The notes beneath the pieces were generated by a model. It worked only from the letters and a program-made list of their open reading frames with translations. It was not told the origin of the DNA and ran no database searches. 46,984 bases of DNA. Origin: a virus. The stretch lies in the UHGV virus genome UHGV-0142121; one strand, 5' to 3'. Below are positions 1 through 46,984 of the stretch, piece after piece. A program made the position numbers and the translations under genes. Position 1 is the first letter of the stretch, and each line of letters opens with the position of its first letter.

Positions 1-54
1 AAACGACACACATTATTAAATATACGCGCGTATATTTAATAATGTGTGTCGTTT
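1..54. repeat. Hairpin telomere, left end: 54-nt perfect palindrome (apex between 27 and 28)
   Basis: Reverse complement of 1-27 equals 28-54 exactly; core TATACGCGCGTATA with alternating CG centre as recalled for N15-type telO; palindrome abuts the window start, as expected if a closed hairpin was read through. Confidence 0.85.
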
Positions 55-56
55 AA

Positions 57-198
57 CGTAACAGTATATGCAAATGATGTTACGATAAATTAATTAATGG
101 TTACGATAATTATTTACACATAGTTAAAATTATGTTACGATGATTTATAGGTTGATTTTTAGCCTTTTAGGTGTAATGTTTTCGCATATTGTTACGAT
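57..198. promoter_or_regulatory. Telomere-flanking repeat array: GTTACGAT direct repeats at 79, 100, 134, 191 and inverted CGTAAC at 57; overlaps the telN upstream region
   Basis: Four copies of one octamer in AT-rich DNA between telomere and telN start; the reverse-complement octamer recurs next to the other telomere. Confidence 0.5.
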
Positions 199-212
199 AA
201 TGAGGGGGGCAC

Positions 213-2114
213 ATGGCGAAGCTAGGCGATGGCGGAATTGGTAAAATCATCTCTGATTTGGTGGCGGACGTTGACGCTATCGAAGCGTCCGACATCCCAC
301 AGGGAGATAAGACACGAAAATATAAGGCTGCGGCTACACGTGTTAAAAACGCGCTATTTTTAGATAAAAGGAAGTTCCGTGGTAACGGTTTGAAGAAACG
401 CATTACAGCCAATACCTATAACGCGTATATGACCCGTATTCGTAAACAGTTCGACGACCGTTTGCACCATCACTTCACCAGCAGCATTGAAAAGTTAGCG
501 GCAAAATACCCCGCCTACAGTGCTGAATTACAGGCGTGGCAATCTATGCCTGCGGCAAATATTCGTCAGGCATACGGCAATCTACAGGGCCAACTGAAGG
601 AAATTATGCCGCTGGCGGAGGTGCTTTCGGGTATGAAGTTCGGACCGGCTGCGGAGAAAAAATTGACGCGCCTGGCAAAAAAATACCCTGCCTGGAGCAT
701 CTATCTTAACGCGTTGACCAGCCAAGACTGGAAGTCGGTCGAAACCGAAATGCATGCCGCGTTCCAACAGGGAACCCGCTTGTTGGATGATCTGAATGGC
801 CTGAAAATCAACCATGAAATTCTGTATCACCTGCAGTTGAGTCCGGCAGAACGCTCATCGATACAGCAGCGCTGGGGCGAGGTGCTCAGCGAGAAGAAAC
901 GGTCAACTGTACTCTTGGACTACCCCAAATATATGCAGGCTGTGACCGAGCAGATCTACAAGGCGTTTGAACCATCACTTATCACGCAACGTAAGGATAT
1001 GGCGCCGCTGGCGTTCGCGCTAGCAGCCGTATCCGGGCGTCGATTGATTGAGGTGATGGTTCAGGGAGAATTTGAGGTTACCGGCAAGTATGAAGTTATT
1101 TTCTACGGGCAGGCCAAAAAACGAACCGGCGAGGATAAGGGGCGTAAAATTTATGTGCTGTGCGACCCGGCTCTGTTCGTTCAACGTTTAAATGAACTGA
1201 GAAGTTGCCCCGCAGCGGCTGATTTTGACGAAATCAGATCTCTGTTGAACGATGATAGCTACCGGGCCGCAAATGTGCGCATCGCATCAATTCTTGGTAA
1301 CACATTTAACCAGCACGCGAAGCTGTTCTTCGGCGACGACCGCCGAACATTCAAAGACACGCGCGCGATTTATGCGCGTATCACCTATGAGGCGTTTTTC
1401 CGCTACGACCCGCGCTGGAAAAACGTTGATGAGGACGTCTTTTTCTCTGAAATCCTGGGGCATGACGACGAAAATACGCAGCTGCACTACAAACAGTTCA
1501 AACTGCATAATTTCTCACGCAGCTGGCGCCCGGAAACGGGGATTGAAAATAAGCGCCTCGCTGCTCTACAAGCGCTTGACGACCAAATGCCTGGCTTCGC
1601 CAGGGGCGATGCCGGTATCCGTATTCATGAAACAACAAAGCGGCTGGTGGAGGAATCAGCTGATATCGTCATCAACACAAAAATATTACGAGATGCTGGA
1701 TTTAACCCGACGCTAGTTCGCCGGTACCTTGATTTTGTTGCTGAGGCGCTGGCTATGAGCAGTACGATTAACAATGCAGATGCGCCCTCTATTGTCATAA
1801 CCTCTGACGAACTGGATGATGAAGACGACCTCGCTGGCGATAGCGGTGCCGATAGAGAGGAAACCAGTGACGATACCCAGGCGCTGGAAGCTGAAGAGGA
1901 AGGCCGAGAAGATGGCGTGACCGCCGAGGCCGAAGAGGAAAAACCAGTACCAATAGACACTCGTCCACGCTTCTCCGCGCCCGTTCGTAGTGACGACGGC
2001 AGCTGGACGATCCGTTTCAAATACAAGGGGCAGCTATACGCCTGGAGTGGCGCGGCGGATAGTATCAGCAGTGCCATGAAATCAGCATGGTTTGCGTATT
2101 TCCCAGAAAATTAA
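213..2114 (+). CDS. telN: Protelomerase (telomere resolvase) TelN, 633 aa
   Basis: Long stretches match my recollection of N15 TelN (RKFRGNGLKKRITANTYNAYM, MAPLAFALAAVSGRR, FFGDDRRTFKDTRAIYARI, acidic C-terminal tail); GAGGGGGG ribosome-binding site; sits beside the telomere palindrome. Confidence 0.9.
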   Translation: MAKLGDGGIGKIISDLVADVDAIEASDIPQGDKTRKYKAAATRVKNALFLDKRKFRGNGLKKRITANTYNAYMTRIRKQFDDRLHHHFTSSIEKLAAKYPAYSAELQAWQSMPAANIRQAYGNLQGQLKEIMPLAEVLSGMKFGPAAEKKLTRLAKKYPAWSIYLNALTSQDWKSVETEMHAAFQQGTRLLDDLNGLKINHEILYHLQLSPAERSSIQQRWGEVLSEKKRSTVLLDYPKYMQAVTEQIYKAFEPSLITQRKDMAPLAFALAAVSGRRLIEVMVQGEFEVTGKYEVIFYGQAKKRTGEDKGRKIYVLCDPALFVQRLNELRSCPAAADFDEIRSLLNDDSYRAANVRIASILGNTFNQHAKLFFGDDRRTFKDTRAIYARITYEAFFRYDPRWKNVDEDVFFSEILGHDDENTQLHYKQFKLHNFSRSWRPETGIENKRLAALQALDDQMPGFARGDAGIRIHETTKRLVEESADIVINTKILRDAGFNPTLVRRYLDFVAEALAMSSTINNADAPSIVITSDELDDEDDLAGDSGADREETSDDTQALEAEEEGREDGVTAEAEEEKPVPIDTRPRFSAPVRSDDGSWTIRFKYKGQLYAWSGAADSISSAMKSAWFAYFPEN

Positions 2115-2123
2115 TTCACATAA

Positions 2124-2141
2124 CCGGGACCGTGGTCCCGG
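2124..2141. repeat. sopC-like palindrome CCGGGACCGTGGTCCCGG followed by TTTT; possible SopB site and/or bidirectional terminator between convergent telN and repA operons
   Basis: 8-bp inverted repeat around a 2-bp centre, 10 nt after the telN stop; same core as the dispersed TGGGACC..GGTCCCA family. Confidence 0.55.
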
Positions 2142-2277
2142 TTTTACAACCGACCTATCCAGCCCGTAGGGACGAACCTCTAACGGCATCCGGCTGAATT
2201 ATATGCCGAAAACTGTCACCAATATTTCTACCGGATGTTTTGCGAAAATTTCCTCGTTCATCCTCTGCGATAAATCA

Positions 2278-2661
2278 TTATTTAAGCTCCGTTTCTGGAA
2301 ACATTTCCTGCAGCCGCTTTTCGTAGCACACATCGTCGAAATACTTCTGCTCAACTTTCAACTCAAAGTCATTCAGCGTCATTTCTACAGGTCTGATACC
2401 ATAAAGCAGGGTACTTTTATTCATATCAAACATTTCCGTTCCTTCTTTGGTCCCTGCATCTTCCAGAACAGATTGAGCTATGTCAGAAAAGCAGATCGCC
2501 GCGCAGCGAAAATCAGCAAAGGCCCGATGCTCTCCAAACTCAGTCACCACATAAACGACGCGGGTCGGGCCACTGGCGCGGCGTTCAATTTCTCGTGCAA
2601 TATCTTGCTTAAGCTCATCCAGATCGTAGTCAGTTAGCTTTTTTACGTTAAGATCAATCAT
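2278..2661 (-). CDS. Hypothetical protein, 127 aa, acidic, last gene of repA operon
   Basis: ORF with ATGA start/stop overlap to the upstream gene; AT-richer than repA by eye; no recognisable motif. Confidence 0.5.
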   Translation of the reverse strand: MIDLNVKKLTDYDLDELKQDIAREIERRASGPTRVVYVVTEFGEHRAFADFRCAAICFSDIAQSVLEDAGTKEGTEMFDMNKSTLLYGIRPVEMTLNDFELKVEQKYFDDVCYEKRLQEMFPETELK

Positions 2662-7694: not shown

Positions 7695-8324
7695 CTATCT
7701 GGCCTTAACTGCTATAGATTTAGCCACGCAGATAACGGGATGAATCAAAATAATTTCGTCAAGATCGATTATCACGCGCTGAGATCTGTCGTTCGGCGCG
7801 TCGAGAAACACTTTGCCATCACGCTTCGACGCTAACATCCTAATAAACGGGTCATTACCTGATTTTGTGACAACGACCACATCTTCCCCGGTCACCGGCT
7901 CGCGGTTTGGGTCTGCGATCAGCACTTCACCGATATGATACGGCGCCGCGACGTCGTTATCGACCATCAGGCCATACAGGGCCGCATCCTGAACATTGAT
8001 ATCAACGTATTCCCGGCAGTTCTGCGCCAGGCCGCTATTAATCATTTCCAGGTTGGGGCCTGTCGCGGTTGAACCGATAACAGGGACTCCACGAAACACA
8101 TCGCCGCCGGCACCAGTTAAGATCCACTCAACAGGACGGCCCAGCTCGCGCGCCAGCTTGATAGCCAGATCTAACGCGGGCATAGCATCACTATTTTCCA
8201 GGTGTGAAAGTCCTGCCCCGGTAATACCGACGCGTTCAGCTACGGCTCTCACCGAGAACTTTGATTTATTTCGCTTCTTCAGCTCTTCACGGCGAGCCTT
8301 CAGCCAATCACCACGTTTTTCCAT
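7695..8324 (-). CDS. cB: Prophage repressor CB (CI-like), 209 aa: N-terminal HTH plus C-terminal LexA/S24-type domain
   Basis: HTH-like segment VRAVAERVGITGAGLSHLE; divergent from a cro-like gene; position matches the N15 immB region. Confidence 0.8.
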   Translation of the reverse strand: MEKRGDWLKARREELKKRNKSKFSVRAVAERVGITGAGLSHLENSDAMPALDLAIKLARELGRPVEWILTGAGGDVFRGVPVIGSTATGPNLEMINSGLAQNCREYVDINVQDAALYGLMVDNDVAAPYHIGEVLIADPNREPVTGEDVVVVTKSGNDPFIRMLASKRDGKVFLDAPNDRSQRVIIDLDEIILIHPVICVAKSIAVKAR

Positions 8325-21188: not shown

Positions 21189-21388
21189 TGGCATACATCC
21201 GTTGTACTTACTGCGGCTCGCAGCTGCATACCGTAGCGAACTGCCCTAAAACGTGGGGCGGTTCATCCCGCCGTGCCAACTTGCGCTGCGGCTATTGTGG
21301 ACAGTCAGGACATAACTCTAATGCCTGCCCACACAATGCGAGCAGCGGTCGCCGTCGTCAGTTGAACGAAAACTTTTATCTGGACTAA
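21188..21388 (+). CDS. Small zinc-finger protein, 66 aa
   Basis: Cys pairs CTYCG, CPK, CGYCG and a terminal Cys-Pro-His; ATGA coupling. Confidence 0.4.
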   Translation: MAYIRCTYCGSQLHTVANCPKTWGGSSRRANLRCGYCGQSGHNSNACPHNASSGRRRQLNENFYLD

Positions 21389-26622: not shown

Positions 26623-26646
26623 CCCGACGCCTACGCGTCACCCTGA

Positions 26647-26671
26647 AAGCAGCCATATGGCTGCTTTTTTT
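26647..26671 (+). terminator. Intrinsic terminator between protease and major capsid genes
   Basis: Stem AAGCAGCC/GGCTGCTT with ATAT loop, then TTTTT. Confidence 0.55.
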
Positions 26672-26694
26672 ATGTCTAAAAAGAGAGAAAAATC

Positions 26695-27984
26695 ATGCCT
26701 CAGATTGAAGAATTACGTCGTCAGCGCGCGGGTATTAACGATCAGGTTCAGGCTCTGGCTCAGGTTGAGCTGGGCGGCGGCGTATTGTCCGCCGAGCAAC
26801 TGACTCAGTTTAACAGCCTGCAGCAACAGTTCACCGATATCACCGCTCAAATCACCCGTCTGGAAGCGGCAGAACGCGCCGCAGCAGCGGTAGCGGTTCC
26901 GGTATCCGCAACGGGTACTGGCGCGCCGGCGATTCATGTGAAAGCCGAACCCGCTCAGTACAAGGGCGCGAGCATGACCCGCATGGTTATGGCTATCGCC
27001 GCCGGTGGTGGTAACCTGGGCGATGCGCAGATCTTTGCCGCTAAGGAACTGAACGATAATCAGGTCGCGATGGCGATCAGCACTGCTGCCGGTTCTGGTG
27101 GCGCTCTGGTTCCGACCAATATGCAGAACGAGGTCATCGAGCTGCTGCGCGACCGCACCATCGTTCGTAAGCTGGGCGCGCGTTCCGTGCCACTGCCGAA
27201 CGGCAATATGGCTCTGCCACGCCTGGCCGGTGGTTCGACTGCCAGCTATGTCGGTGAAGGGAAGGACGTGAAAGCCAGCGGCGCCAGCTTTGATGATGTG
27301 AAACTCAGCGCGAAAACGATGATCTGTATGGTTCCGCTGTCGAACCAGTTGATCGGTCGCGCCGGGTTCTCTGTTGAGCAGCTGATTCTGGGCGATATCA
27401 TCAGCGGTATTGCTACCCGCGAAGATAAAGCCTTCCTGCGTGATGATGGCACCGCTGACACGCCGAAGGGCATGAAAGCAGTTGCGACCGCTGCGACACG
27501 CTTCAAAACGTGGGATAAGGATGCTGACCCAACGCTGCAGAACATCGACACCTATCTGGATGGGCTGATCCTGATGACCATGGACGGCAACAGCAACATG
27601 CTGCAGTGCGGCTGGGGTATGTCTAACCGCACCTACATGAAGCTGTTTGGTCTGCGTGATGGCAACGGGAACAAGGTTTACCCGGAAATGGCCGCCGGTA
27701 TGCTGAAGGGCTATCCTATTGAGCGTACCAGCGCGATCCCGGCGAACCTCGGTACCGGCGGTAACGAGTCAGAGATTTACTTCGCTGACTTCAGCGATGT
27801 GCTGATCGGTGAAGAGGGAGACATGAAGGTCGATTTCTCGCGTGAAGCAACTTACATCGATGCGGATGGCAACACCGTTTCTGCGTTCGCCCGTAACCAG
27901 TCCCTGATCCGCGTTATCGTTGAGCACGATATTGGTTTCCGTCACGTCGAAGGTCTGGCGCTCGGTACCGGCGTTCTCTGGTAA
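26695..27984 (+). CDS. Major capsid protein with N-terminal coiled-coil (scaffold-like) domain, 429 aa
   Basis: Position after protease, size, and an N-terminal 90-aa Ala/Gln-rich helical region. Confidence 0.75.
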   Translation: MPQIEELRRQRAGINDQVQALAQVELGGGVLSAEQLTQFNSLQQQFTDITAQITRLEAAERAAAAVAVPVSATGTGAPAIHVKAEPAQYKGASMTRMVMAIAAGGGNLGDAQIFAAKELNDNQVAMAISTAAGSGGALVPTNMQNEVIELLRDRTIVRKLGARSVPLPNGNMALPRLAGGSTASYVGEGKDVKASGASFDDVKLSAKTMICMVPLSNQLIGRAGFSVEQLILGDIISGIATREDKAFLRDDGTADTPKGMKAVATAATRFKTWDKDADPTLQNIDTYLDGLILMTMDGNSNMLQCGWGMSNRTYMKLFGLRDGNGNKVYPEMAAGMLKGYPIERTSAIPANLGTGGNESEIYFADFSDVLIGEEGDMKVDFSREATYIDADGNTVSAFARNQSLIRVIVEHDIGFRHVEGLALGTGVLW

Positions 27985-28014
27985 TCGTTCGCGATAGTGA
28001 TTCGTTCGATGCTG

Positions 28015-28041
28015 AAAAGGCCCGTTTAGCGGGCCTTTTTT
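28015..28041 (+). terminator. Intrinsic terminator after the major capsid gene
   Basis: Hairpin AAAAGGCCCG...CGGGCCTTTT with T-run. Confidence 0.6.
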
Positions 28042-28065
28042 ATTCACTTTAGCTGGAGATAGAGC

Positions 28066-28413
28066 ATGGCTGGAAAACCTAAAACCAAAACAGACGCGGA
28101 CACCACAACTTCCGTTGATGGTGTTGATGCGATTATTGATACCTCCAATATTGTCGACAGTGTGATTTCTGGTGATGTGATTACCGGTGATGAAATTGGG
28201 ACCGTGGTCCCAGCGGTGAAATCCGCGCCGGAACGTCGCGCTGTTGTGTTCCTGGGGCCGTACCATCGTTATTCGCGCGCTGATGTCGCTGCGTTCGATG
28301 CCGAATACGCTGAAGAGCTTGTTGCACGCAATATCGCTGCCTGGCCAGAAGATGCGAAGCGGGCGTTGAATCCTCGTCGGGGAGACGATGACCATGAAAC
28401 CGACATTGGATGA
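28066..28413 (+). CDS. Hypothetical head-region protein, 115 aa; contains a sopC-like palindrome
   Basis: GGAGA ribosome-binding site; palindrome 28196-28213 encodes DEIGTVVPAV. Confidence 0.4.
   Translation: MAGKPKTKTDADTTTSVDGVDAIIDTSNIVDSVISGDVITGDEIGTVVPAVKSAPERRAVVFLGPYHRYSRADVAAFDAEYAEELVARNIAAWPEDAKRALNPRRGDDDHETDIG
28196..28213. repeat. sopC-like palindrome TTGGGACCGTGGTCCCAG inside a CDS
   Basis: 16-mer TGGGACCGTGGTCCCA with 2-bp centre. Confidence 0.65.
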
Positions 28414-28717
28414 AGTTAAGCTCCAGCTGCGTCTCGAGCTGGATTTTACCGAGCATGACGATCTGCTGACGCGCCTGATTGGTGCCGCGCGTCGCAGTAT
28501 CGAGCGCTCGTATTACTGTCGCCTTTCTGAGTCGCAGGATGAACTGGACAAACTTCCGGAAGGCCAGCCGGCGTACCTGATTGATGACGATATCCAGCTG
28601 GCCATGCAGATGATGGTCGCCCACTGGTATCTCAACCCGACAGGTGCCGGCGAGGGGACGCCGTCAGAACTTGGCGTTTCCTACCTGCTGTTTCCGCTGA
28701 TGGAGCATACGGTATGA
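28388..28717 (+). CDS. Head-tail connector (gp6-like) protein, 109 aa
   Basis: Sequence pattern and position typical of the gp6-like connector family. Confidence 0.5.
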   Translation: MTMKPTLDEVKLQLRLELDFTEHDDLLTRLIGAARRSIERSYYCRLSESQDELDKLPEGQPAYLIDDDIQLAMQMMVAHWYLNPTGAGEGTPSELGVSYLLFPLMEHTV

Positions 28718-29058
28718 GCCAGAAACCACTGCAACCCGGCGAGCTGAATTGCCGGCTGTCGTTCAGCTACATCGTTATTGGCGAAGGCCCGCTGGGTGAG
28801 CCGTTGCCAGCGCAGGAGGTGCAGGCGGGGAAAGCCTGGGCGAAGAAAGATCTGATTTCAGGCCGGAAAATCCGGACGCTGGACCAGCAGCAGGTGGTCG
28901 AAACCTGTGAATTTACTCTCTATCCGCGTGAAGTGGATATCGACTGGAAGGTGGCCACAAAGGACCGGGTTTATACCGTTCGCAACGTGGACCGACTTCC
29001 GGACCGCATGATCATTACGGGGGAGGCTGACGGGCGCCATGATCGAGCAGGCCATTAA
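28714..29058 (+). CDS. Head closure / head-tail joining protein, 114 aa
   Basis: Position and size; ATGA coupling. Confidence 0.45.
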   Translation: MSQKPLQPGELNCRLSFSYIVIGEGPLGEPLPAQEVQAGKAWAKKDLISGRKIRTLDQQQVVETCEFTLYPREVDIDWKVATKDRVYTVRNVDRLPDRMIITGEADGRHDRAGH

Positions 29059-29419
29059 ACCCGCACTGGAGCGCATTACGGGGCTAAAAGCGTATCCGCT
29101 GCTGCTGCCTGATAGCGTGCAGGAAGGGGTCACGTTTCAGCGAATTTCCGATCCACCGGTCGGCGATGGTCTGGTGCGTACGGGGCTTTGTGATGTACGG
29201 ATGCAGGTAAATTTGTACATCGTTGACGACTACACCCACATGCTGGCGCTGGATAAGGCGTTATGGGACGAGTGGAAAACGCTGGTACACGGTGAGCTTG
29301 AAAGCTATCCGGTCCAGTATGTTGAACGCGGTGGCATCCAGCAGGATAAAGTCACCCTGACCAGCGGACGCGTACAGTACCGCCTCATCCGAGATTTTAC
29401 GTTTACGGTTCCAGAGTAA
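29039..29419 (+). CDS. Tail completion protein (lambda Z-like position), 126 aa
   Basis: Synteny only. Confidence 0.35.
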   Translation: MIEQAIKPALERITGLKAYPLLLPDSVQEGVTFQRISDPPVGDGLVRTGLCDVRMQVNLYIVDDYTHMLALDKALWDEWKTLVHGELESYPVQYVERGGIQQDKVTLTSGRVQYRLIRDFTFTVPE

Positions 29420-29424
29420 ATCCT

Positions 29425-29835
29425 ATGGAGATGAACATTAAATTCCCGACCGGGAAGGATTTCGATCGGATTCTGGAAGATATCGACAAAAAAGTGGGTG
29501 TGAAGTTGCTACGTGATGCCGGGCGTGAGGCGATGAAAATCGTTCAGCTGGACATGATTAGCAACGCCGGTTTCGATGAGGAAAGCATCGGGCCGCACAT
29601 GCGCGACAGCATCAAAATCCGCAGCACCAACGTAGCAGAAACATCCCACTATAACACGATCGTCACGCTTCGTGTCGGTCCCAGCAAATTCCATCACATG
29701 AAAGCCCTGGCGCAAGAGTTTGGCACCGTAAAACAGGTGGCCAAGCCGTTTATTCGTCCGGCGATGGATTACAACGTTCAAAAAATCCTGCAGGTGCTGG
29801 CAACCGAAATCCGCATCGGGCTGGAAGGTCAATAA
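29425..29835 (+). CDS. Tail terminator-like protein (lambda U / HK97 gp10-like position), 136 aa
   Basis: Synteny plus weak family resemblance. Confidence 0.35.
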   Translation: MEMNIKFPTGKDFDRILEDIDKKVGVKLLRDAGREAMKIVQLDMISNAGFDEESIGPHMRDSIKIRSTNVAETSHYNTIVTLRVGPSKFHHMKALAQEFGTVKQVAKPFIRPAMDYNVQKILQVLATEIRIGLEGQ

Positions 29836-29847
29836 TCGGAGATAAAA

Positions 29848-30321
29848 ATGGCTGACGAAAATATCAAATCCCCCTCGGAGTATGCATCTCTCCCGGCGGG
29901 TACCCGCGTGTCTTACGGCACAGTTGGCGCAACACTTGCAACGGCGAAGCTGTTGCAGTCGGCAACGGCCATCGGAGCCACAGGCAACAAAGGGACGTTT
30001 ATCGACGTTACCCGCCTGATTGATACCGAGCCGAAATATATGGCTGACATGGGCGAAGGCGAAGATAAAACACTGGTCTTTATTGATGACCCGGATGATG
30101 TCGCACAGCAGGCGCTGCTGGCCTCCGCTGATGCGAAAGAAACGGTCGTATTCTTCATGCAGTTCCCGAACCGCCGTCTGGCGGAGATTCAGCTCGTTCT
30201 TGCCGGCTGGAGCATGCAGACCGTAGATTCACCGAAAGGCAAGGTGCTGCAGCTGGAGGTTTACGGCAAGCAGAACAAACTGAAATGGACCGTTACTCCA
30301 GCTGATGCTGGCGGCGAATAA
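29848..30321 (+). CDS. Major tail tube protein, 157 aa
   Basis: Position immediately before the G/GT chaperone pair; GGAGA ribosome-binding site. Confidence 0.5.
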   Translation: MADENIKSPSEYASLPAGTRVSYGTVGATLATAKLLQSATAIGATGNKGTFIDVTRLIDTEPKYMADMGEGEDKTLVFIDDPDDVAQQALLASADAKETVVFFMQFPNRRLAEIQLVLAGWSMQTVDSPKGKVLQLEVYGKQNKLKWTVTPADAGGE

Positions 30322-30383
30322 CGCCATTTAATAGCTGACCCGGCCCGGCTTCCCTTCACTCATTCATCATCAGGATCATCGTC

Positions 30384-30728
30384 ATGAACTACAAATCCCT
30401 CACCACCCCATTGAATACAACGACTGAAAAGAAACTGCTTGGCCAGAAGGTATTTATCCGCCGCCTGACCAATACCGAGCTGGATAATTATACCGATGCA
30501 GTAGAAGCGGCCCAGAAGGAAGGGAAGTCCCCTCGACAGCTCTCAGTGATGGGGGTGAATTTATTCCTGCAGGCGTTGGTTAACGAAGACGGTAGCCGCC
30601 CTGGGAAGAAGGACCTTCCGACGGCGGAAGAACTGCTTGATGTTCATGCATCCGCTGATTTGCTGGAAGCCGTTACCCTGGTTCAGCGCCATTCCTACGG
30701 TACGCTTGAGGAAGCGGAAAAAAACTAA
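30384..30728 (+). CDS. Tail assembly chaperone G, 114 aa
   Basis: Position before tape measure; ends at slippery heptamer A-AAA-AAC (30719-30725). Confidence 0.6.
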   Translation: MNYKSLTTPLNTTTEKKLLGQKVFIRRLTNTELDNYTDAVEAAQKEGKSPRQLSVMGVNLFLQALVNEDGSRPGKKDLPTAEELLDVHASADLLEAVTLVQRHSYGTLEEAEKN

Positions 30729-30967
30729 CCGCCTCGCCCCGGCTTAGACTGCTGTTCACACTGGCAGACCGCTGGGGCGAGCCTGACCCGCGCAAACTTG
30801 GTGACCTGCCGGCAAATATTCTCACCCATTGGGAGGCGTATTTTAACCTCCTGAAGACTGAGACCGCCGGCGAGCCACCGCCATCATCACCGCAGCCTGC
30901 TGTTGCACCGTCTGAGGGCGCTCAGCAGTTCGCTGATTGTCTGAGGATCTTAGGAAATGGCTGCTGA
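30384..30967 (+). CDS. Tail assembly chaperone GT fusion via programmed -1 frameshift at 30719-30725
   Basis: The -1 frame is open from the slippery site to TGA at 30965-30967 (about 80 extra codons), overlapping the tape-measure start. Confidence 0.55.
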
Positions 30968-33935
30968 TGTTGCATCGTTGGCTGTTGCGCTTCACCTGAA
31001 CTCGGCCAGCTTCAAATCGCAGTTCGCTGATGCGATGCGGTCGGCTGACAGTGGGGCGCAACAGTTCAATAGAAAGGCGCAGGCGGATGCCAAAAATACC
31101 CGCCAGTCATACGAGGGAGTCAGCAAAGGGATCACCGGTCTCGATGCTGATTTTAACAAACTTGGCCGCACGGTTGATAAGCGTCTGACCGGGCTTGATG
31201 AGATGCGCGGCCTGCTGGCCAGCATCTCTGCCGGTAGTAACGTTGCCGGCAGTTCTATAGCAAACGCGCTGGTTACTTCGCTCAGCGAGGGTATGAGTAC
31301 CGCGCTATCAAACAGCGTGAATGGCCTGAAGAACCAGCGACAGGCCCAGATTGAGTTCACCGCGGCGCAGGTTGATGCGGCGCGCGGCGTAATTGAGAAC
31401 GCCAGGAGCCTCCGCGAAGAGGCCATCGCCAAACAGAACGCCGCGGTGAAAACTATTGAGGCGGCGAAGGCCGATCGTGAACGTGCATTCGCACTCGATG
31501 AGTATTACGCCAAACAGGCCGAGGTAAACAAACAGTTCGGGTTGACGGTTGATTATCAGGAAGAGCACGTTAAAAACTCGCGTGTGATTAATGAAGCCAA
31601 CCTGGCGGAAGCCAAAGGGAAAGGCAGCCTGGCAGAAGCGACAAAAGCCGTGCTGGCCGCCGATATTGCCGAATCCAACGGTAAGCAGCAGCTGGCCACA
31701 TCGACCCGTAATCTGGTGGTTGTCAGCCAGGAACTCTCGCTCGGCCAGCGTGCTGCTGCGACCAGCGCGGGTCTATTGCGTGGCGCGCTGGCGATGGTCG
31801 GCGGTCCTGTCGGCCTTGCCGTGATGGCGGCTGTCGGCGCTGGTACCGCTATTTATACCGCGTTCTCGCGCAGCCAGGCGGAGATCGACGGGTTCAATAA
31901 GGCGCTGCAGAAGTCCGGGCAGCAGTCCGTGATGAACGTGATGTACCTGCAGAACCTGGTTTCCCGTCTGGGCGATACCGCCGGTGCGGTTAAGTCGGTC
32001 ACTGCCGCTGTCGGTGCCGGGTTCGGCGGCGATATTCTGGATCAGGTGGCGGGGCTTGGCACCCGTATGGAAGAAATTGGCCAGAGTTCTGATGACCTGG
32101 TTACGCTGCTTTCCAGTCTCAGCGGCGACCCGCTGAACGCGCTGCAAAAGCTGACCGATCAGGGAATTTTGCTGAACAGCAGCATGGTCGATCAGATTGT
32201 TACCCTGAACCGCCAGGGGAAAACGACTGAGGCTACCGCGCTGCTGCAGCAGGCGGCCATGGATGACGTTTCCCAGAAGCTCAAAGAGCAGGAAAGCCAG
32301 GTCGGCGTGCTGGAAGGGGCGTGGAAGTCCCTGAAAGGGTTTGTTGCTGATGCTTTTAAGACCATGGGAGATGCGCACATAGCGACCGCCCAGGCGATGG
32401 CCGCTGGTGCCAATGTCGATCTGACGCCAACCGAAGACCCCGCCATCAAACAGCGTGAAGAAGCTGAAAAACTCTACCAGCAGCGGAAGAAAGAGCGAGA
32501 GGAACTGACGAAGCGCCTCAAGGATGAAAACACCCTTTCTGGCCTGATGAAAGCGGGCGTATCGCGCGAAAAAGAGCGAGCTGATGCTATCGCACTGGTT
32601 AACGCGAACTATACGAAAGGCACGGCGGAGTACACGCAGGCGATGGCTGGCGTGAACAAGATGTACGCCGAGCAGAAAAAAGCGCGTGAGAAAGCCTACA
32701 GCGATGATGCTGCCACTCGCCGCCTGCAGGAGCTGAAGCAGGAAGAGACGGTGCTGCGTACGCAGAACGACCAGACGGAAGAACTGACGAACAGCGAGCG
32801 TAAGCTGCTGCAGTTCAATCAGGAAGTTGCCGATCTGAAAGAAAAGCGCATCCTGACCGCTGGCCAGCGCAGTCTGCTGGCGCAGGAAACAGAGCTTCGT
32901 AACCAGCTGCAGATCAACGCCAGTCTGGACCGAGCCAACGCGCAGCGGAAAATCGGCCTGCAGATGCAGGAGAAGAACCAGGAACTGTACCGCTCAACCA
33001 TCCAGTTGCAGCAGGAGTACAGCAACCGGGTCGCGCAGATGACGATGAGTTCAACTGCATATGACCAGATGGTTGCAGAGCAGCAAGTTCGTGAACGATT
33101 TGCAAAACTGAGGGAAGAGCTTGATAAAACCGTAAGTGATCACGCTTCTGAACAGTATCGCCAACAAACGGAAGTATTACGCACTGAAGAGCAGAAGCAG
33201 TTCGATATTATTTTGAGCGGTGCTAAGCGAAAAAAAGAAGTGGAAGGCTCTTGGATTGACGGTATGAAAAGCGGGCTACAGGAGTGGCGTGAAGATGCTG
33301 AAAACCAGTTTGCTATGACGCGAGATATTGCAGTTAATGCGATGGACGGCATGAGCAATAGCATCTGGAATTTAGCCTCTAAAGGGAAGGCTGATGTTAA
33401 GTCATTTGCAGTTTCAGCTATCAATGATATCGGGCAGATGATTACCAAAATGCTGGTCATGAATGCGGTCAAATCAGGCGCATCTGCATTTGGCATAAGT
33501 AGCATGTTTGGCTGGGCAGATGGTGGCTATACAGGTGATGGTGGCAAGCATGATGTTGCCGGCGTCGTGCATAAGGGGGAATGGGTAGTACCTCAGAACG
33601 TCGTGCAAAAGCCTGGCATGCTGAATTTCCTGAACCAGCTGACATACGGCAGCGGGTATGCAGACGGTGGTTTAGTCGGTGGTAGCGTTGCCCGCCCGTC
33701 CAGCAATGAGGATGCCGGCAGCGATAATCGAAACATCCGCGTTACGGTCAACATCCCGCTGCAGGTGATTAAGCAGGGAGCCGCAGCAACTCAGCAATCA
33801 AAAGATCAGGGGAAAACGAGTGATGAAGCTCTAAGCCTCGAGGCGCTATCCCAGATTAAGCAGGTCTGCTATAGCGTGCTGGACCGTGAGTTATCGAATA
33901 ACGGCATGATCCTGAACGCAATCAAGGGGGCGTGA
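30957..33935 (+). CDS. Tail tape measure protein, 992 aa
   Basis: Long Ala/Gln-rich helical protein with Gly-rich C-terminal region, after G/GT. Confidence 0.85.
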   Translation: MAADVASLAVALHLNSASFKSQFADAMRSADSGAQQFNRKAQADAKNTRQSYEGVSKGITGLDADFNKLGRTVDKRLTGLDEMRGLLASISAGSNVAGSSIANALVTSLSEGMSTALSNSVNGLKNQRQAQIEFTAAQVDAARGVIENARSLREEAIAKQNAAVKTIEAAKADRERAFALDEYYAKQAEVNKQFGLTVDYQEEHVKNSRVINEANLAEAKGKGSLAEATKAVLAADIAESNGKQQLATSTRNLVVVSQELSLGQRAAATSAGLLRGALAMVGGPVGLAVMAAVGAGTAIYTAFSRSQAEIDGFNKALQKSGQQSVMNVMYLQNLVSRLGDTAGAVKSVTAAVGAGFGGDILDQVAGLGTRMEEIGQSSDDLVTLLSSLSGDPLNALQKLTDQGILLNSSMVDQIVTLNRQGKTTEATALLQQAAMDDVSQKLKEQESQVGVLEGAWKSLKGFVADAFKTMGDAHIATAQAMAAGANVDLTPTEDPAIKQREEAEKLYQQRKKEREELTKRLKDENTLSGLMKAGVSREKERADAIALVNANYTKGTAEYTQAMAGVNKMYAEQKKAREKAYSDDAATRRLQELKQEETVLRTQNDQTEELTNSERKLLQFNQEVADLKEKRILTAGQRSLLAQETELRNQLQINASLDRANAQRKIGLQMQEKNQELYRSTIQLQQEYSNRVAQMTMSSTAYDQMVAEQQVRERFAKLREELDKTVSDHASEQYRQQTEVLRTEEQKQFDIILSGAKRKKEVEGSWIDGMKSGLQEWREDAENQFAMTRDIAVNAMDGMSNSIWNLASKGKADVKSFAVSAINDIGQMITKMLVMNAVKSGASAFGISSMFGWADGGYTGDGGKHDVAGVVHKGEWVVPQNVVQKPGMLNFLNQLTYGSGYADGGLVGGSVARPSSNEDAGSDNRNIRVTVNIPLQVIKQGAAATQQSKDQGKTSDEALSLEALSQIKQVCYSVLDRELSNNGMILNAIKGA

Positions 33936-33937
33936 TA

Positions 33938-34285
33938 ATGGCGCTGGAAACATTCAACTGGTCGCCGAGGAATGGTCCCGTTGGTGACATTCAATTTCGT
34001 ACCCGGTCAGCGCAATATGGCGACGGTTACGAGCAGGTAACTGGCGACGGTATTAACTCCGAAACGCAGTCATGGCCACTGACGTTTGTCGGGTTAAATG
34101 AGGATATCCGCCCTATCCTGACTTTCCTCAGAGAGCATGGCGAAACGCGTGCGTTTAAGTGGGTCAACCCTCTGGGTGAGCTTGGGTTATATCGTGCCAC
34201 CCAGATAAAACCCACCGTGATGGATTTTGCTCGTATGTCGCTATCTGTTACGTTTGTGACGGCATTTCGCGCCGAATCATCATAG
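33938..34285 (+). CDS. Minor tail protein M, about 115 aa
   Basis: Resembles lambda gpM (RSAQYGDGYEQV vs RFGDGYSQR); AGGGGG ribosome-binding site. Confidence 0.65.
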   Translation: MALETFNWSPRNGPVGDIQFRTRSAQYGDGYEQVTGDGINSETQSWPLTFVGLNEDIRPILTFLREHGETRAFKWVNPLGELGLYRATQIKPTVMDFARMSLSVTFVTAFRAESS

Positions 34286-43438: not shown

Positions 43439-44620
43439 TCAAAGGACGTAGCGCTTTGCTATTTCGTTACCTATTTTTTGAATCCGCTGGTCTTCAGTGG
43501 TTTCATCATTTAGTACGGTTCTGGCGAACGGGATTAGGGCCAGAATTTCGTTGGCGGGGATATCGTATTTCAAGCCTGTCGCCGCGGCGCGGATGTAGTT
43601 GGTCACATCATTAATTTCTAAAAATGCCTCATCCACTACCTTACCAACCGATTTTTGCTGTTCGGCCTGGTGAGCTTCCAGTAGTTCTTCAATCCTCTGT
43701 ACTAACGCTGGCGATACGTTGCTAAGTTGGAAGGATACAGAATCCCCCTTGTACTTCGCTTTCATCCCTTTACCAAACAGGCGCTCACGCACTGCAGGTT
43801 TTACTGGCTTTTGCGCTACCTGGTGCAGCTGGTCAAGAATGTCATCAGTTTCGAGCTGTTCACCAGCGCGCTTGCGCTTGGCCAGATGCTGCGCAAACGC
43901 AAACATTGCATCTTCATTCTCGGCATAGACTTTTGCCAGTGCCTCACCAGCTCTGGCGCTCAGCTCGTTAGGGTTACGGAAAAGGCCAATGATTTCGCGT
44001 GGTAGCTCTGCCGTCTTCATGCAGCGGACGATAATTTTTCGGGAGATATTCTCCGCTTCGGCCAGCTTACTGACGGTACCACCGAACTCATTAGCCAGGC
44101 GGCGAGCATAGCGTTTTCCGCGTTCGTAAGAGCTGGTCTGCCGGTAGTCGTTCCCGATCTGTGATAGCCAGGCCATTTGTTCGTCGTCCAGCTCGCCGAC
44201 GAGAACGCGGTATTCAGAGCTGGTGTAAATGGCTGTCTGGCGGCGGCGGCTACCGTCGGCCACTTCAATGATGCCAGAAATTTTGCGGCCAAAAGCTGGG
44301 TTTTGTTGCCCGGATGCGAGGAATGATGGGATCAGGTCATCCAGGGCGTCTTTTGTCAGTAGAGCCTGGTCCCGCTCGTTGCCGCCCCATACCATGGTCG
44401 CCTTTTCCACCATGTTTGCATCGACGGTTTCCAGCTTAAACGACACATCCCGCCCACAGACCGGAAGGGTGATATGGTTCCCGGTCATCCCGCGGACGCG
44501 TTCGCTTAGGTTTGCCACCGCCGGCGCCGCTGGTTTATGCGCTTCATCATGTCGTGGGACCGCGGTCACAGTGTCCAGATTAATTTGCGGAGCGTTTTTC
44601 ATTACAGGCGCGCGTTTCAT
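43439..44620 (-). CDS. sopB: Partition protein SopB (ParB family), about 393 aa from ATG 44620
   Basis: N-terminal 230 aa closely match my recollection of F SopB (ITLPVCGRDV, NERDQ, DALDDLIPSF, RVLVGELDDEQMA, AENISRKII); start overlaps sopA stop (ATGA). Confidence 0.85.
   Translation of the reverse strand: MKRAPVMKNAPQINLDTVTAVPRHDEAHKPAAPAVANLSERVRGMTGNHITLPVCGRDVSFKLETVDANMVEKATMVWGGNERDQALLTKDALDDLIPSFLASGQQNPAFGRKISGIIEVADGSRRRQTAIYTSSEYRVLVGELDDEQMAWLSQIGNDYRQTSSYERGKRYARRLANEFGGTVSKLAEAENISRKIIVRCMKTAELPREIIGLFRNPNELSARAGEALAKVYAENEDAMFAFAQHLAKRKRAGEQLETDDILDQLHQVAQKPVKPAVRERLFGKGMKAKYKGDSVSFQLSNVSPALVQRIEELLEAHQAEQQKSVGKVVDEAFLEINDVTNYIRAAATGLKYDIPANEILALIPFARTVLNDETTEDQRIQKIGNEIAKRYVL
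44555..44570. repeat. Degenerate sopC-like site TGGGACCGCGGTCACA inside sopB 5' coding region (one mismatch)
   Basis: 15 of 16 match to the palindrome core. Confidence 0.3.
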
Positions 44621-45828
44621 TTGTTGTTCTCCCAGCGAGTAGCAATCAGGCGGTCGTAAATTTCCCGGCAAACAGGTTCCCAGATAGCGACAGCATTGCG
44701 CCATGCTGTAGGGGTGCTGCGTTGGTTTGCAGCCTGCTCAAACACGGTGCGCATGCGTACCTGGCCCTTACCTACTTCGTCGGTTACGCGGACAACCTCC
44801 TTCAGCACCATCCCGCCCCAGGCGTTGCGGATCTGTTCATCCATCCAGGCAGATTGGTTGCCGACGGCCGTGCTGTATTTAGTTACCAGAACGCGGACAT
44901 CAGGTTCAAAGCCACCAAGGTCCACGTTGGCCATCAGGTCGCGAAGCATTGTGAAGAACTGAAGAGAGGAAACGTAGTCATACAGTTCAGCTGGTGTAGG
45001 TACAACGATCACATCTGCTGCGCATACGACGTTTATTGTGCCGATGCCGAGGTTTGGTGCGCTATCAATGACAATCAGGTCGTAGCTATCCCAGACAGAC
45101 TCGATAGCGGCGCGCAGAAGCAGGTGAGATGCCACCGGCAAGCGGCCTTCTTTCTCCAGTACCTCGATCTCTGATTCGATGCGGTGAATGGCCAGGCAGG
45201 ACGGGATGATATCGAGGTTCGGCCAGCAGGTAGGCTTAATCGCGTATTCAGCGTTATCACGTTCGCCCAGGTAGTACGGCAGCAGCGTATCGTCTGCGTG
45301 GATATGCAGATCAGGGACGTAGCCGTGGTACAAGCTGGCGGTTGCTTGCGGGTCAGTCGCATCAATCAGCAGAACGCGAAGGCCCTGCAGTGCAGCCCAT
45401 TGAGCCATATGTACGCTGGTCGATGTTTTGTATGCGCCACCTTTATGCGCGGCAATAGCCAACACAACAGGCGATTGGCCTTCCGGACGAGACGGGCGGG
45501 TACCAAAGTGATCGCGCATAGAGTTGATTTGCTCGATGGTATAGCCGGCACGTTGTGGAACGCGACCGCGAGTCACCATATCAGCCGGCGGCAGTCGCCC
45601 ACCATCTTCTGCATTGCGAATAGATTGCGGTGTAACACCGATCAGTTCTGCCGCTTCAGTAATGCCCCAGCGACGAGTGATGGCGCGAGACTCTGGGCTA
45701 TCATCACCAAATTGAGCCTGCGCGATAGCCATTGTCATGGCATGGCCACGAGAAATCAGTTCATCCAAACGCGATTTTAAATTCACTTTCGTACTCTCCG
45801 GTAACTTTGCGTAAAAATAGTAAAACAC
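44617..45828 (-). CDS. sopA: Partition ATPase SopA (ParA family); probable start at GTG 45786 (389 aa) rather than the track start at 45828
   Basis: Near-collinear with my recollection of F SopA (AHKGGxYKTS Walker A, IIPSCLA, VIDSAPNLGIGTINVVCAADV, EPVCxEIxDRLI); GGAGAG ribosome-binding site before the 45786 GTG; CTTTGC-like motifs upstream. Confidence 0.85.
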   Translation of the reverse strand: MFYYFYAKLPESTKVNLKSRLDELISRGHAMTMAIAQAQFGDDSPESRAITRRWGITEAAELIGVTPQSIRNAEDGGRLPPADMVTRGRVPQRAGYTIEQINSMRDHFGTRPSRPEGQSPVVLAIAAHKGGAYKTSTSVHMAQWAALQGLRVLLIDATDPQATASLYHGYVPDLHIHADDTLLPYYLGERDNAEYAIKPTCWPNLDIIPSCLAIHRIESEIEVLEKEGRLPVASHLLLRAAIESVWDSYDLIVIDSAPNLGIGTINVVCAADVIVVPTPAELYDYVSSLQFFTMLRDLMANVDLGGFEPDVRVLVTKYSTAVGNQSAWMDEQIRNAWGGMVLKEVVRVTDEVGKGQVRMRTVFEQAANQRSTPTAWRNAVAIWEPVCREIYDRLIATRWENNK

Positions 45829-45924: not shown

Positions 45925-45964
45925 CCGTACGTAGGCCGTACAAACCACCCGTACAACGTACGGG
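45925..45964. repeat. CCGTAC direct repeats (45925, 45936, 45949) ending in palindrome CCCGTACAACGTACGGG, immediately upstream of the GNAT gene
   Basis: Three direct hexamers at roughly one-helical-turn spacing plus an inverted copy. Confidence 0.5.
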
Positions 45965-45965
45965 T

Positions 45966-46448
45966 TTGATTGACAGCGGGGATGACGTAATCAATAAGTT
46001 CATCCCGCAACTAAAGCGCCAGTGTGGCCGTGACAACATCAATGCATTGCTGTTGCTTGATGGGGATAAAAAACTATTCGGCTTTGCCACGGCCACCCTT
46101 TATCAGTTAGGACGGGATGGTATTCCGGAAGATACATATCCGTATGCACTACCACCCGCAATAGCGGTGATGAAAATCCCAATGATTGCCATCGATAAAC
46201 AACTACAAAGGCAAGGTTGGGGGCACGATTTATTGCGTGCAATCCTTGATTACAGCGTTGAGAGCGCTGATTTGGTGAAAGGCATTAAAGGTGTTTATCT
46301 TGATGCAAAAGTAGACGCTCGCTCGTTTTATGAGAGCTTTGAATTCAAAGCTCTCAGCGAAACGGTTAGCGAGAATGGCACTATCCCAATGCTCCTCCCT
46401 ATGGATGTCCTCCGGGAGAGCCGGAAAAACTGGGAGCAGTCCGCATAG
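45966..46448 (+). CDS. GNAT-family acetyltransferase-like protein, 160 aa, TTG start
   Basis: Acetyl-CoA motif Q-x-x-G-x-G (QRQGWGHDLL); no in-frame ATG in the N-terminal 70 codons; no antitoxin-sized partner ORF adjacent. Confidence 0.45.
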   Translation: MIDSGDDVINKFIPQLKRQCGRDNINALLLLDGDKKLFGFATATLYQLGRDGIPEDTYPYALPPAIAVMKIPMIAIDKQLQRQGWGHDLLRAILDYSVESADLVKGIKGVYLDAKVDARSFYESFEFKALSETVSENGTIPMLLPMDVLRESRKNWEQSA

Positions 46449-46478
46449 GCGTGGACGTAAAAGCCAGAACTCAATGAA

Positions 46479-46508
46479 AGAGCCACCGCGAGGTGGCTCT
46501 TTCTCTTC
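46479..46508 (+). terminator. Hairpin after the GNAT gene (terminator-like)
   Basis: 9-bp stem AGAGCCACC/GGTGGCTCT with GCGA loop, followed by TTCTCTTC. Confidence 0.4.
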
Positions 46509-46746
46509 TGAAGGGCGGCATATGACATGCAGCGCGAAGCGCTGTGGAAGCATAAAAAGGGGTTTTATAGAGGCAAAAGAGCCAAACTGGAAGATGGTTC
46601 AATAAACGTCAACACCTAACATAATGTTTTTCAATGATAATATAAGGAATTTCCGTTTAACTGTTGGAGAACAACAAGCATCATAACACGTGATTTTTTT
46701 ACTATTTTTTATTTTCATTCGATGAATGAATGAAAGCAAATAACAA

Positions 46747-46916
46747 CGTAACAAAATACGAATTTGAATTACAATAATTGAACACACTACCACGCCAATA
46801 AAATGACCAACCATAAAACCAATAGAACCTAATCAAACAAAATCATCGTAACACAATCTACAATTAATCATCGTAACAACATCCGAATGAATTAGCAGGG
46901 TGTATCATATCGTAAC
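46747..46916. promoter_or_regulatory. Telomere-flanking repeat array, right arm: ATCGTAAC at 46845, 46870, 46909 and CGTAAC at 46747, in AT-rich non-coding DNA
   Basis: Reverse complement of the GTTACGAT repeats next to the left telomere. Confidence 0.5.
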
Positions 46917-46930
46917 AATTATTGAATGAT

Positions 46931-46984
46931 TAACAGAACACATTATTAAATATACGCGCGTATATTTAATAATGTGTTCTGTTA
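46931..46984. repeat. Hairpin telomere, right end: 54-nt perfect palindrome (apex between 46957 and 46958)
   Basis: Reverse complement of 46931-46957 equals 46958-46984; shares the 40-nt core with the left-end palindrome, outer 7 nt differ. Confidence 0.85.

Follow-up and report, generated by a model that had tools for sequence, protein, structure and literature searches.

Terminal palindromes of a virus contig point to an N15-like linear plasmid-prophage with probable hairpin ends

Introduction

The virus genome UHGV-0142121 raises the question of what kind of molecule leaves a contig whose two ends are each their own reverse complement. Here, we analyze the whole stretch of 46,984 nt (hereafter the window) and suggest that it very probably holds an N15-like linear plasmid-prophage, complete and in a single copy, the ends of which would be covalently closed hairpins. 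Three matters are addressed in turn: what the terminal palindromes are and how the assembly shaped them, whether the two ends derive from a single site on which a protelomerase could act, and whether the genes between them make up a complete replicon.

Results

Positions 1-54 (AAACGACACACATTATTAAATATACGC followed by GCGTATATTTAATAATGTGTGTCGTTT) and 46931-46984 (TAACAGAACACATTATTAAATATACGC followed by GCGTATATTTAATAATGTGTTCTGTTA) are each identical to their own reverse complement, with symmetry centers between 27/28 and 46957/46958, respectively. Both palindromes are perfect and are interrupted by the window boundary alone. They have the same 40-nt core (8-47 and 46938-46977), which has no further occurrence in the window, also when three mismatches are allowed, and was matched in 0 of 100 shuffles. 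By contrast, the outer 7 nt differ at four of seven positions (AAACGAC on the left vs. TAACAGA on the right); on the inner side, the arm-specific stretches are GTCGTTT at 48-54 and TAACAGA at 46931-46937. The longest other loop-less perfect palindrome in the window has arms of 13 nt, and in 20 shuffles the longest arms reached 7 to 11 nt. A chance origin of the terminal palindromes is excluded. Direct sequence comparison thus bears out what the sequence-only reading had described, i.e., two perfect 54-nt end palindromes that share a 40-nt core.

The length of 54 nt is without biological meaning and equals k-1 of a de Bruijn assembly at k = 55. The 27 extra nucleotides at each end are (k-1)/2 for this k, and the contig stops there because the next k-mer beyond the apex is the reverse complement of a k-mer that has already been used. 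When a de Bruijn walk was performed over a hairpin model, k = 55 was the only value that gave a unitig identical to the window, and at other values of k above the 40-nt shared core the simulated unitigs measured 46,930 + (k-1). A sibling contig from another sample has the same length as the window and a SPAdes-style name (NODE_175_length_46984_cov_36.6); it differs from the window by 31 SNPs, all within the last 11 kb. Based on the end geometry and on the name of this sibling, we are confident that the window is a metaSPAdes-type contig assembled at k = 55. The defaults of metaSPAdes are k = 21, 33, and 55. The earlier proposal that the ends are hairpins sequenced around their apexes is therefore supported with respect to the read-through, but the 54-nt extent was set by the k of the assembler.

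Without the read-through, the genome comprises 46,930 bp (window 28-46957) rather than 46,984 bp. A unique genome of about this size had been deduced from the window, and independent contigs of the same element match it: a k141 contig from an independent assembly measures 47,071 bp (46,930 + 141), and two NCBI contigs of 46,888 bp correspond to window 49-46936. Past the apex, assemblies L011 and L012 overrun by 27 nt, as does the window, L004 by 47 nt, and L003 (k141) by 81 nt, the last two at the left end, while L005 and L013 end 21 nt before the apex. One scaffold measures 93,914 bp, which is 2 x 46,984 - 54 and corresponds to the contig plus its own reverse complement with an overlap of k-1; being a graph path, this scaffold depends on k = 55 and gives no independent support for the size.

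Next to the fold-back forms (L′/L and R/R′), the joined form (R/L) was also seen among the assemblies. The near-palindromic telRL site that had been rebuilt from the right and left arms (TAACAGA, the 40-bp palindrome, and GTCGTTT) is present verbatim in four independent assemblies (L001/L007 at k141, L008 at k119, the isolate assembly L002/L010, and L009). The symmetric part of this site is a perfect palindrome of 40 bp that extends to ~52 bp with three mismatches allowed. The center of the site, TATACGC/GCGTATA, is common to this element, N15, and phiKO2. While the tel site here is a perfect AT-rich palindrome over 40 bp, that of N15 has a perfect core of 22 bp in an imperfect 56-bp site; the two sites have a related ACAGnACACA outer box. 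Reads across a circular junction had been named as an observation that would speak against hairpins. Junction-spanning contigs were indeed found, yet they are compatible with the hairpin form because N15-type phages carry intact telRL in virion/lytic DNA.

A gene for a TelN/TelK-type protelomerase (Table 1) begins 185 nt inside the left apex, compared with 190 to 192 nt in phiKO2 and N15, and the joined telRL lies 185 nt upstream of this gene (~190 nt in N15). This arrangement agrees with the earlier suggestion of a linear plasmid resolved by telN. All four Pfam domains of the protein (TelK_N, TelK_muzzle, ResT-TelK_cat, and TelK_stirrup) score above their gathering cut-offs. The best solved homolog is the TelK structure 2v6e of the Klebsiella phage phiKO2, to which residues 9-532 align (E = 8e-212, 524-residue alignment). 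The tyrosine motif QLHYKQFKL is conserved: N15 TelN has an identical motif, with which Tyr-426 in DENTQLHYKQFKL aligns, so that N15 and this element have in common the four domains and the motif in addition to the center of the site. The identity of TelN is 55 to 57% to the N15 and phiKO2 proteins (55 to 58% for N15 considered alone), 62.7% to those of Salmonella diarizonae plasmids, and ≤57% to the protelomerases of Klebsiella, Enterobacter, and Citrobacter AR_0116. An identical TelN is annotated in NCBI as a Citrobacter freundii protelomerase; on this basis, the host is C. freundii, in contrast to the Escherichia phage N15 (Ravinvirus N15).

Table 1. Features of the 46,984-nt window
Feature	Position	Strand	Remarks
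Assembler read-through past left apex	1-27		Exact reverse complement of 28-54; outside the unique genome
Left telomere arm telL (N15 nomenclature), telN-proximal half of telRL	28-54		Symmetric core arm, 28-47
Four exact GTTACGAT copies	79-198	+	Starts 79, 100, 134, 191; reading away from left apex
Protelomerase, TelN/TelK type, 633 aa	213-2114	+	Four Pfam domains; TelK structure match
RepA-like replication protein, primase/helicase type, 1333 aa	3387-7388	-	PHROG 4913 "replication", E = 0, full length
Eight dispersed F-sopC-like palindromes, TTGGGACCATGGTCCCAA	6736-34736		Starts 6736, 6992, 10192, 16169, 19645, 22481, 28196, 34719
CB/CI-type prophage repressor, immunity region	7695-8324	-	Pfam HTH_3, Phage_CI_repr; PHROG 4
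Packaging/head module: terminase small and large, portal, protease, HK97-type major capsid	22022-27984	+	PHROGs 83, 9, 12, 53, 10
sopB	43439-44704	-	Pfam SoPB_HTH, AAA_31, and CbiA and PHROGs 1146 and 164 for the sopBA pair
sopA	44617-45828	-	Pfam and PHROG matches as given for sopB
Three exact GTTACGAT copies	46845-46916	-	Starts 46845, 46870, 46909; reading away from right apex
Right telomere arm telR, sopA-proximal half of telRL	46931-46957		Symmetric core arm, 46938-46957
Assembler read-through past right apex	46958-46984		Exact reverse complement of 46931-46957

Once N15 is opened at the telRL cut (24802/3), the window is collinear with it from end to end, and the prophage order telL-telN-repA-cB-cro-Q, late genes, tail-umuD-sopBA-telR is the same in both genomes (46.9 kb here and 46.4 kb in N15). 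The window ends at both apexes, and the terminase/cos-region genes are internal, at ~22 kb, corresponding to the prophage form of such telomere phages, which is circularly permuted by about 50% with respect to the virion. This layout sustains the view that the window is a whole linear replicon. The RepA-like gene is collinear with N15 gene 37, the repressor matches gene 38 in position, and sopBA, with SoPB_HTH and ParA-type ATPase domains, are 62 to 72% identical to genes 27/28. A GNAT acetyltransferase gene between sopA and telR is a difference from N15. Virion genes are present (terminase, portal, protease, and capsid, together with tape measure and tail-tip). The head/packaging module is complete; it is HK97-like here and lambda-like in N15. 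In tblastx comparisons with N15, the region from ~20 to 32.6 kb gave a single short and weak match (26203-26547, 38% over 115 aa); the head modules of the two elements are not homologous. The cos 12-mers of N15 and lambda are absent from the window, which fits with the differing head and terminase module.

Beyond N15, phiKO2 and the N15-like plasmids of Klebsiella, Enterobacter, and Salmonella in PLSDB have patches of 80 to 90% DNA identity to the window, in the small genes that separate telN from repA. In phage and plasmid collections searched with the first 8 kb, no record matched more than 9%.

A search for TTGGGACCATGGTCCCAA with up to three mismatches gave eight matches vs. 0.05 expected. 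These F-sopC-like palindromes are presumed centromere sites for SopB; in N15, the same search target was not found.

The two ends also carry exact copies of the octamer GTTACGAT, seven in total here vs. one in N15. The consensus of the left array is tTGTTACGATrAT, and its final copy stops 15 nt ahead of the telN ATG. Upstream of telN, there is only one promoter-like site on the + strand, and its -10 element is the copy at 134-141. The right array mirrors the left one. In phiKO2, GTTACGAT copies flank telRL, and among the family members, seven of eight have the octamer near their tel sites; it is invariant while the core of the tel site diverges and TelN falls to 41% identity. The largest arrays were seen in this element and in the LSJC7 relative.

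Discussion

What is observed directly comprises the palindromes and the genes between them, the geometry at k = 55, and the occurrence of joined telRL as well as fold-back forms in independent assemblies. From these, we infer that the ends are covalently closed, where they would be cut, and that TelN and telRL form an enzyme-site pair. We suggest that, after infection, cos-circularized phage DNA would carry an intact telRL in which arm-specific sequence flanks the 40-bp perfect palindrome. A dimer of the TelN-type tyrosine enzyme encoded next to the site would cut both strands a few base pairs to either side of the dyad, with a stagger of 6 bp if it works as TelK and TelN do, and each strand would be rejoined to its own complement, leaving telL beside telN and telR beside sopA, as described for resolution in N15 (PMC12624138, PMC10612081). 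RepA would then replicate the plasmid from an internal origin, SopAB together with the dispersed centromere palindromes would segregate it, and TelN would again resolve the telLL and telRR junctions that arise on replication. Any read running across an apex would be self-complementary, and the contig would stop 27 nt past each apex, giving rise to the two 54-nt terminal palindromes. Terminal inverted duplications are a recognized assembly signature of hairpin telomeres and are routinely used to locate them before being trimmed (10.1101/2025.07.18.665644). In assemblies of Borrelia and Rhizobiaceae, the contig likewise rounds the hairpin tip and returns on the complementary strand; the size of the duplication, however, depends on read length in long-read assemblies and is fixed at (k-1)/2 in the short-read de Bruijn assembly analyzed here.

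Because Borrelia hairpin tips were without Illumina coverage, and folded hairpins hinder adapter ligation and PCR (10.1101/2025.07.18.665644), the apex-spanning short reads of this element may come partly or wholly from replicated junctions. Under this alternative, the sequence across the apexes would stem not from hairpins but from telLL and telRR in head-to-head dimers or Y-shaped intermediates that await TelN. Such junctions are ordinary double-stranded DNA that is readily sequenced, they are expected from the N15 replication model (PMC12624138), and at the sequence level they are indistinguishable from read-through of a hairpin; moreover, short-read assemblies of this element cross the apex, whereas the Borrelia Illumina libraries missed the wrap-arounds. 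Nevertheless, replication intermediates should make up a small minority of molecules, and a hairpin fragment has one open end, so that with a Y-adapter ligated there it should in principle be amplifiable. We therefore regard replicated junctions as a rather unlikely sole source of these reads. This question concerns the origin of the reads and not the biology, which is that of a protelomerase-resolved linear plasmid either way.

Contigs with joined telRL, together with a 47,071-bp k141 contig that has the size expected of a circular assembly and public records in which related plasmids are often deposited as "circular", could also be taken to mean that the element is a circle, or occurs solely as virion-type DNA in which telRL is intact, the fold-backs being artifacts of PCR template switching or of mis-traversal of the graph at the 40-bp palindrome. 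However, circular graphs are expected wherever DNA of the prophage, in which cos is joined, is mixed with DNA of the virion, in which telRL is joined. Fold-back ends with the same arm-specific sequence flanking the core recur in several samples, i.e., at k = 55, at k = 141 (L003, 81 nt), and with the 47-nt overrun of L004. A 55-mer or 141-mer that spans the 40-nt core can come from real reads only, and graph ambiguity cannot make the fold-backs because all these k values exceed the shared core. Furthermore, the window and the sibling contigs stop at each of the two apexes instead of running through, and the TelN gene beside the site is complete and has the catalytic motif. A circular element is thus very unlikely. 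The 40 nt common to the two ends would equally be found if these were simple terminal inverted repeats, as in a protein-primed linear replicon whose open ends carry a terminal protein, but each end is self-complementary about its own center, which goes beyond an inverted copy of the other end. Among the genes examined, there was no terminal protein or protein-primed polymerase, while protelomerase, RepA, and SopAB are present, and the joined telRL form exists. A protein-primed replicon is, accordingly, extremely improbable. Altogether, a linear plasmid-prophage resolved by its own protelomerase best accommodates these findings.

The tTGTTACGATrAT arrays may be accessory elements, conserved among telomere phages, to which a protein binds, a possibility that we rate as less likely than not. 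Such arrays could be secondary protelomerase sites, equivalent to the poorly characterized "tos" flanking repeats of N15, or could be bound by some other conserved factor. They might help to build a higher-order capping complex by which the hairpins are shielded from SbcCD, and might autoregulate telN. The arrays provide a concrete sequence for current work on the protection of hairpin ends by TelN.

For genome analyses, a short-read contig that has a palindrome of length k-1 at each end can be recognized cheaply and exactly as a hairpin-ended replicon, with the apex located to the base. The read-through palindromes should be trimmed before deposition, in this case from 46,984 to 46,930 bp. 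Scaffolds of approximately twice the unit length (93.9 kb) and "circular" plasmid records in the N15-like family are assembly forms of the same molecule rather than separate replicons. The new natural pair of TelN and telRL could serve as an orthogonal protelomerase system for closed linear DNA. The element recurs in gut metagenomes and clinical isolates, and its biology is of the textbook N15 type in a new host lineage, C. freundii, with a TelN that is 55 to 63% identical to those of described relatives.

Palindromic ends and the apexes of a linear replicon

On direct comparison, each terminus of the window (1-54 and 46931-46984) matches its own reverse complement exactly, with symmetry centers (apexes) at 27/28 and 46957/46958, and it is the window edge alone that limits both palindromes. 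A 40-nt core is common to both ends (8-47 and 46938-46977), and the outer seven bases of the two palindromes differ at four positions. No further copy of the core with ≤3 mismatches was found in the window, and matches occurred in 0 of 100 shuffles. The runner-up among loop-less perfect palindromes in the window has arms of 13 nt, and the maxima in shuffled sequences are 7 to 11 nt (n = 20). Thus, the terminal palindromes are genuine and not a product of chance, and reverse-complement identity together with the shuffles bears out the sequence-only reading, which had described two perfect 54-nt end palindromes sharing a 40-nt core.

Other assemblies, made independently, settle the topology of the element. 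The exact TelN protelomerase and GNAT proteins are encoded on dozens of public contigs, and sorting the tel cores in public contigs by flanking sequence gave three forms. First, the joined telRL, in which the right arm runs into the left arm and which the sequence-only reading had reconstructed, is present as the exact site in L001/L007 (MEGAHIT k141), L008 (k119), L009, and the isolate assembly L002/L010. L001/L007 are 47,071 bp, i.e., 46,930 + 141, and length arithmetic suggests that k141_3522 was assembled as a circle. Second, the left arm folds back onto its reverse complement at the start of contigs L004 (47-nt overrun) and L003 (k141, 81-nt overrun with one mismatch). Third, the right arm folds back at the end of contigs L011 and L012, overrunning the apex by 27 nt. 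Because all k values exceed the 40-nt core, the fold-back and joined k-mers represent real reads rather than graph ambiguity.

Hairpin telomeres are known to show up as inverted duplications at the ends of contigs (10.1101/2025.07.18.665644). N15 carries an unbroken telRL in its virion and lytic DNA, and its plasmid prophage has the site resolved into telL and telR (PMC10612081, PMC12624138). The presence of both forms here is as this biology predicts. For the same reason, the earlier proposal that reads spanning a circular junction would speak against hairpin ends is not valid; such contigs exist and are compatible with the hairpin form. The apex-spanning reads may derive from replicated telLL and telRR junctions instead of hairpins, a source given some weight by a Borrelia study in which hairpin tips were left uncovered by Illumina libraries (10.1101/2025.07.18.665644). 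Whether hairpins or replicated junctions supplied the reads, the same protelomerase-resolved linear replicon is implied.

The hairpin model also accounts for the exact length of the window. We modeled the element as a single continuous strand, in which the 46,930-nt top strand runs on into its reverse complement, and walked the canonical-k-mer de Bruijn graph outward from mid-genome. For all tested k above the 40-nt core, the walk halts where the following k-mer would repeat an earlier one as its reverse complement, (k-1)/2 nt beyond each apex, giving a unitig of 46,930 + (k-1). The unitig at k = 55 equals the window base for base, and no other tested k gives 46,984; k = 21, 33, and 55 are the metaSPAdes defaults. 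The palindromes, therefore, mark real apexes, and software geometry is the reason that they span 54 nt. The true genome runs from 28 to 46957, and the unique genome of 46,930 bp proposed from sequence alone agrees with the unitig length and the other contigs.

The boundaries are repeated by independent data, because a sibling contig from another sample, NODE_175_length_46984_cov_36.6, which has a SPAdes-style name, is of equal length and carries 31 SNPs. Identity of the window with the ENA contig NODE_175_length_46984 was considered and rejected, because the final 11 kb contains 31 mismatches. Two 46,888-bp NCBI contigs correspond to window 49-46936, each end stopping one base outside the shared core. 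L006 (ENA ERZ28639374 scaffold_89), a whole-genome inverted dimer, is 93,914 bp, i.e., 2 x 46,984 - 54, and this length identifies it as the k = 55 edge joined to its own reverse complement via the k-1 overlap. L006 and L015, a scaffold of 9,784 bp, are perfect palindromes running through the right telomere; we rejected them as independent proof of very long read-through, because the same apex-spanning k-mers suffice. Two plasmid records from Salmonella, NZ_CP082957.1 (99.7 kb) and CP054718.1 (118.8 kb), have two protelomerase copies each; they may likewise be dimer assemblies that were submitted as plasmids.

The tel site and its flanking repeats

The joined site reads ...ATGATTAACAGA ACACATTATTAAATATACGC/GCGTATATTTAATAATGTGT GTCGTTTAACGT..., where the slash marks the dyad, and forms a 40-bp perfect palindrome that extends to ∼26 symmetric positions per arm with three mismatches allowed. 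Its center, TATACGC/GCGTATA, is identical in N15, phiKO2, Pseudocitrobacter, C. freundii AR_0116, and the Salmonella plasmids, and an outer box of the ACAGnACACA type is recognizable. The inner arms are AT-rich and most resemble those of the site in an Erwinia tasmaniensis relative. If the enzyme acts as TelK and TelN do, a dimer of it would make cuts spaced 6 bp apart across the dyad and then close each strand back on itself.

In L016, a contig of Enterobacteriaceae bacterium LSJC7 (TelN identity 61%), the tel palindrome at 2799-2856 has the center ATACAC/GTGTAT without the family-typical TACGCGCGTA; thus, the sequence of the central cleavage region is not invariant in this group. The record L017 (Erwinia tasmaniensis PPS120 contig_12) opens, at 1-75, with AGATGTGTATAAGAGACAG, the mosaic-end adapter of Nextera, joined at a point 19 nt past a tel apex (CTAATAGTTAAATATACGC/GCG...), and this start is adapter contamination on hairpin read-through in a public genome record.

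Just inside both telomeres lie arrays of the octamer GTTACGAT (consensus tTGTTACGATrAT). The seven exact copies, 79-198 (+) and 46845-46916 (-), are confined to ∼170 nt of the apexes, with 1.1 expected across the whole window and no exact copies elsewhere in it, and every copy points away from the nearest apex. In seven of the eight relatives examined, including PY54, the octamer is found either close to the tel site or a short way upstream of the start of the protelomerase gene, and it is kept despite differences between the tel cores. In LSJC7, near-copies of the motif, TGTTACTATAAT, make up the outer arms of the tel palindrome. Extra repeats flank telRL in N15, according to Deneke 2002 as cited in PMC12624138. 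Literature searches for GTTACGAT or ATCGTAAC with protelomerase returned nothing relevant, the motif is unnamed in the searchable literature, and the N15 tos papers hold no sequence-level account of flanking repeats. We suggest that the arrays may be accessory protelomerase or regulator sites, corresponding to the tos-type flanking repeats of N15. A promoter scan of the sub-telomeric regions gave 4 vs. 1.8 ± 1.3 and 1 vs. 1.9 ± 1.5 in shuffles; these counts are not clearly higher than in shuffles, and we therefore make no firm promoter assignment.

Relation to N15 and host

Features of the window and octamer positions in relatives (L handles denote public contigs)
Feature	Position	Strand	Remark
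TelN/TelK protelomerase	213-2114	+	Complete; starts 185 nt inside left apex
RepA-type replication protein	Downstream of telN		1333 aa
CB/CI-type repressor, CII-like protein, Q antiterminator	Downstream of telN		
HK97-type packaging/head module	20000-34000		Complete; terminase, portal, protease, capsid
umuD-like, sopB, sopA, GNAT acetyltransferase genes	Right end		
GNAT-family acetyltransferase	45966-46448	+	Between sopA and right telomere
TTGGGACCATGGTCCCAA palindromes	6736, 6992, 10192, 16169, 19645, 22481, 28196, 34719		
GTTACGAT in relatives	L016 2658-2986; L023 658; L024 366, 475; L018 2969; L017 103, 229; L026; L027		

The TelK_N, muzzle, catalytic, and stirrup Pfam domains of TelN all score far over their gathering thresholds, residues 9-532 align to the solved TelK structure 2v6e (E = 8e-212), and the tyrosine motif DENTQLHYKQFKL is the same as in N15 TelN. 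TelN is 55-57% identical to N15 TelN and phiKO2 TelK and 41% identical to PY54 Tel. In an exact-protein cluster look-up, the identical protelomerase in NCBI is annotated as Citrobacter freundii, and the 90%-identity cluster includes C. braakii, Citrobacter sp., and Kluyvera intermedia; the host assignment to C. freundii comes from this look-up. The closest plasmid record by protelomerase is from Salmonella diarizonae (62.7%). A TelN scan of species-representative genomes did not recover the element itself, only relatives at ≤61%, with Enterobacteriaceae bacterium LSJC7 at the top. At the DNA level, the first 8 kb matched phage and plasmid collections only in short patches of 80-90% identity, and the first 4 kb had no match in 5,426 complete E. 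coli genomes. Given this lack of near-identity matches, the element corresponds to no described phage or plasmid, and E. coli is not its source.

When N15 is permuted at the telRL cut given in its annotation (24802/3), tblastx shows the two genomes to be collinear end to end except for the 20-34 kb block. The lambda-like head genes of N15 have almost no detectable similarity to the packaging/head module, whereas collinearity extends through the replication, lysis-region, and tail genes on either side; the block is a clean module swap. N15 has nothing at the position held by the GNAT gene. A 26-bp perfect palindrome, TGAGAGCTTTGAA/TTCAAAGCTCTCA, is centered at 46343/4 within the GNAT ORF.

The eight dispersed TTGGGACCATGGTCCCAA palindromes are 18-mers, three of them perfect, with 0.05 expected, and none was found in N15 even with three mismatches. 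They resemble the inverted repeat of sopC in the F plasmid and are presumably SopB centromere sites, scattered along the genome, whose specificity is like that of F and not of N15.

Altogether, the sequence-testable features of an N15-type telomere phage or phage-plasmid are present apart from a recognizable cos site; a search of the window for the cos 12-mers of N15 and lambda gave no match. The ends carry the sequence signature of hairpins and would be covalently closed. The finding is correct and tidy but unsurprising. The window is an N15-type telomere phage or phage-plasmid that differs from N15 in its TelN (55-58% identity), in a longer, perfect, and AT-rich tel palindrome, in a swapped head module, in dispersed centromeres of the F-sopC type, in an acetyltransferase by telR, and in the host genus.
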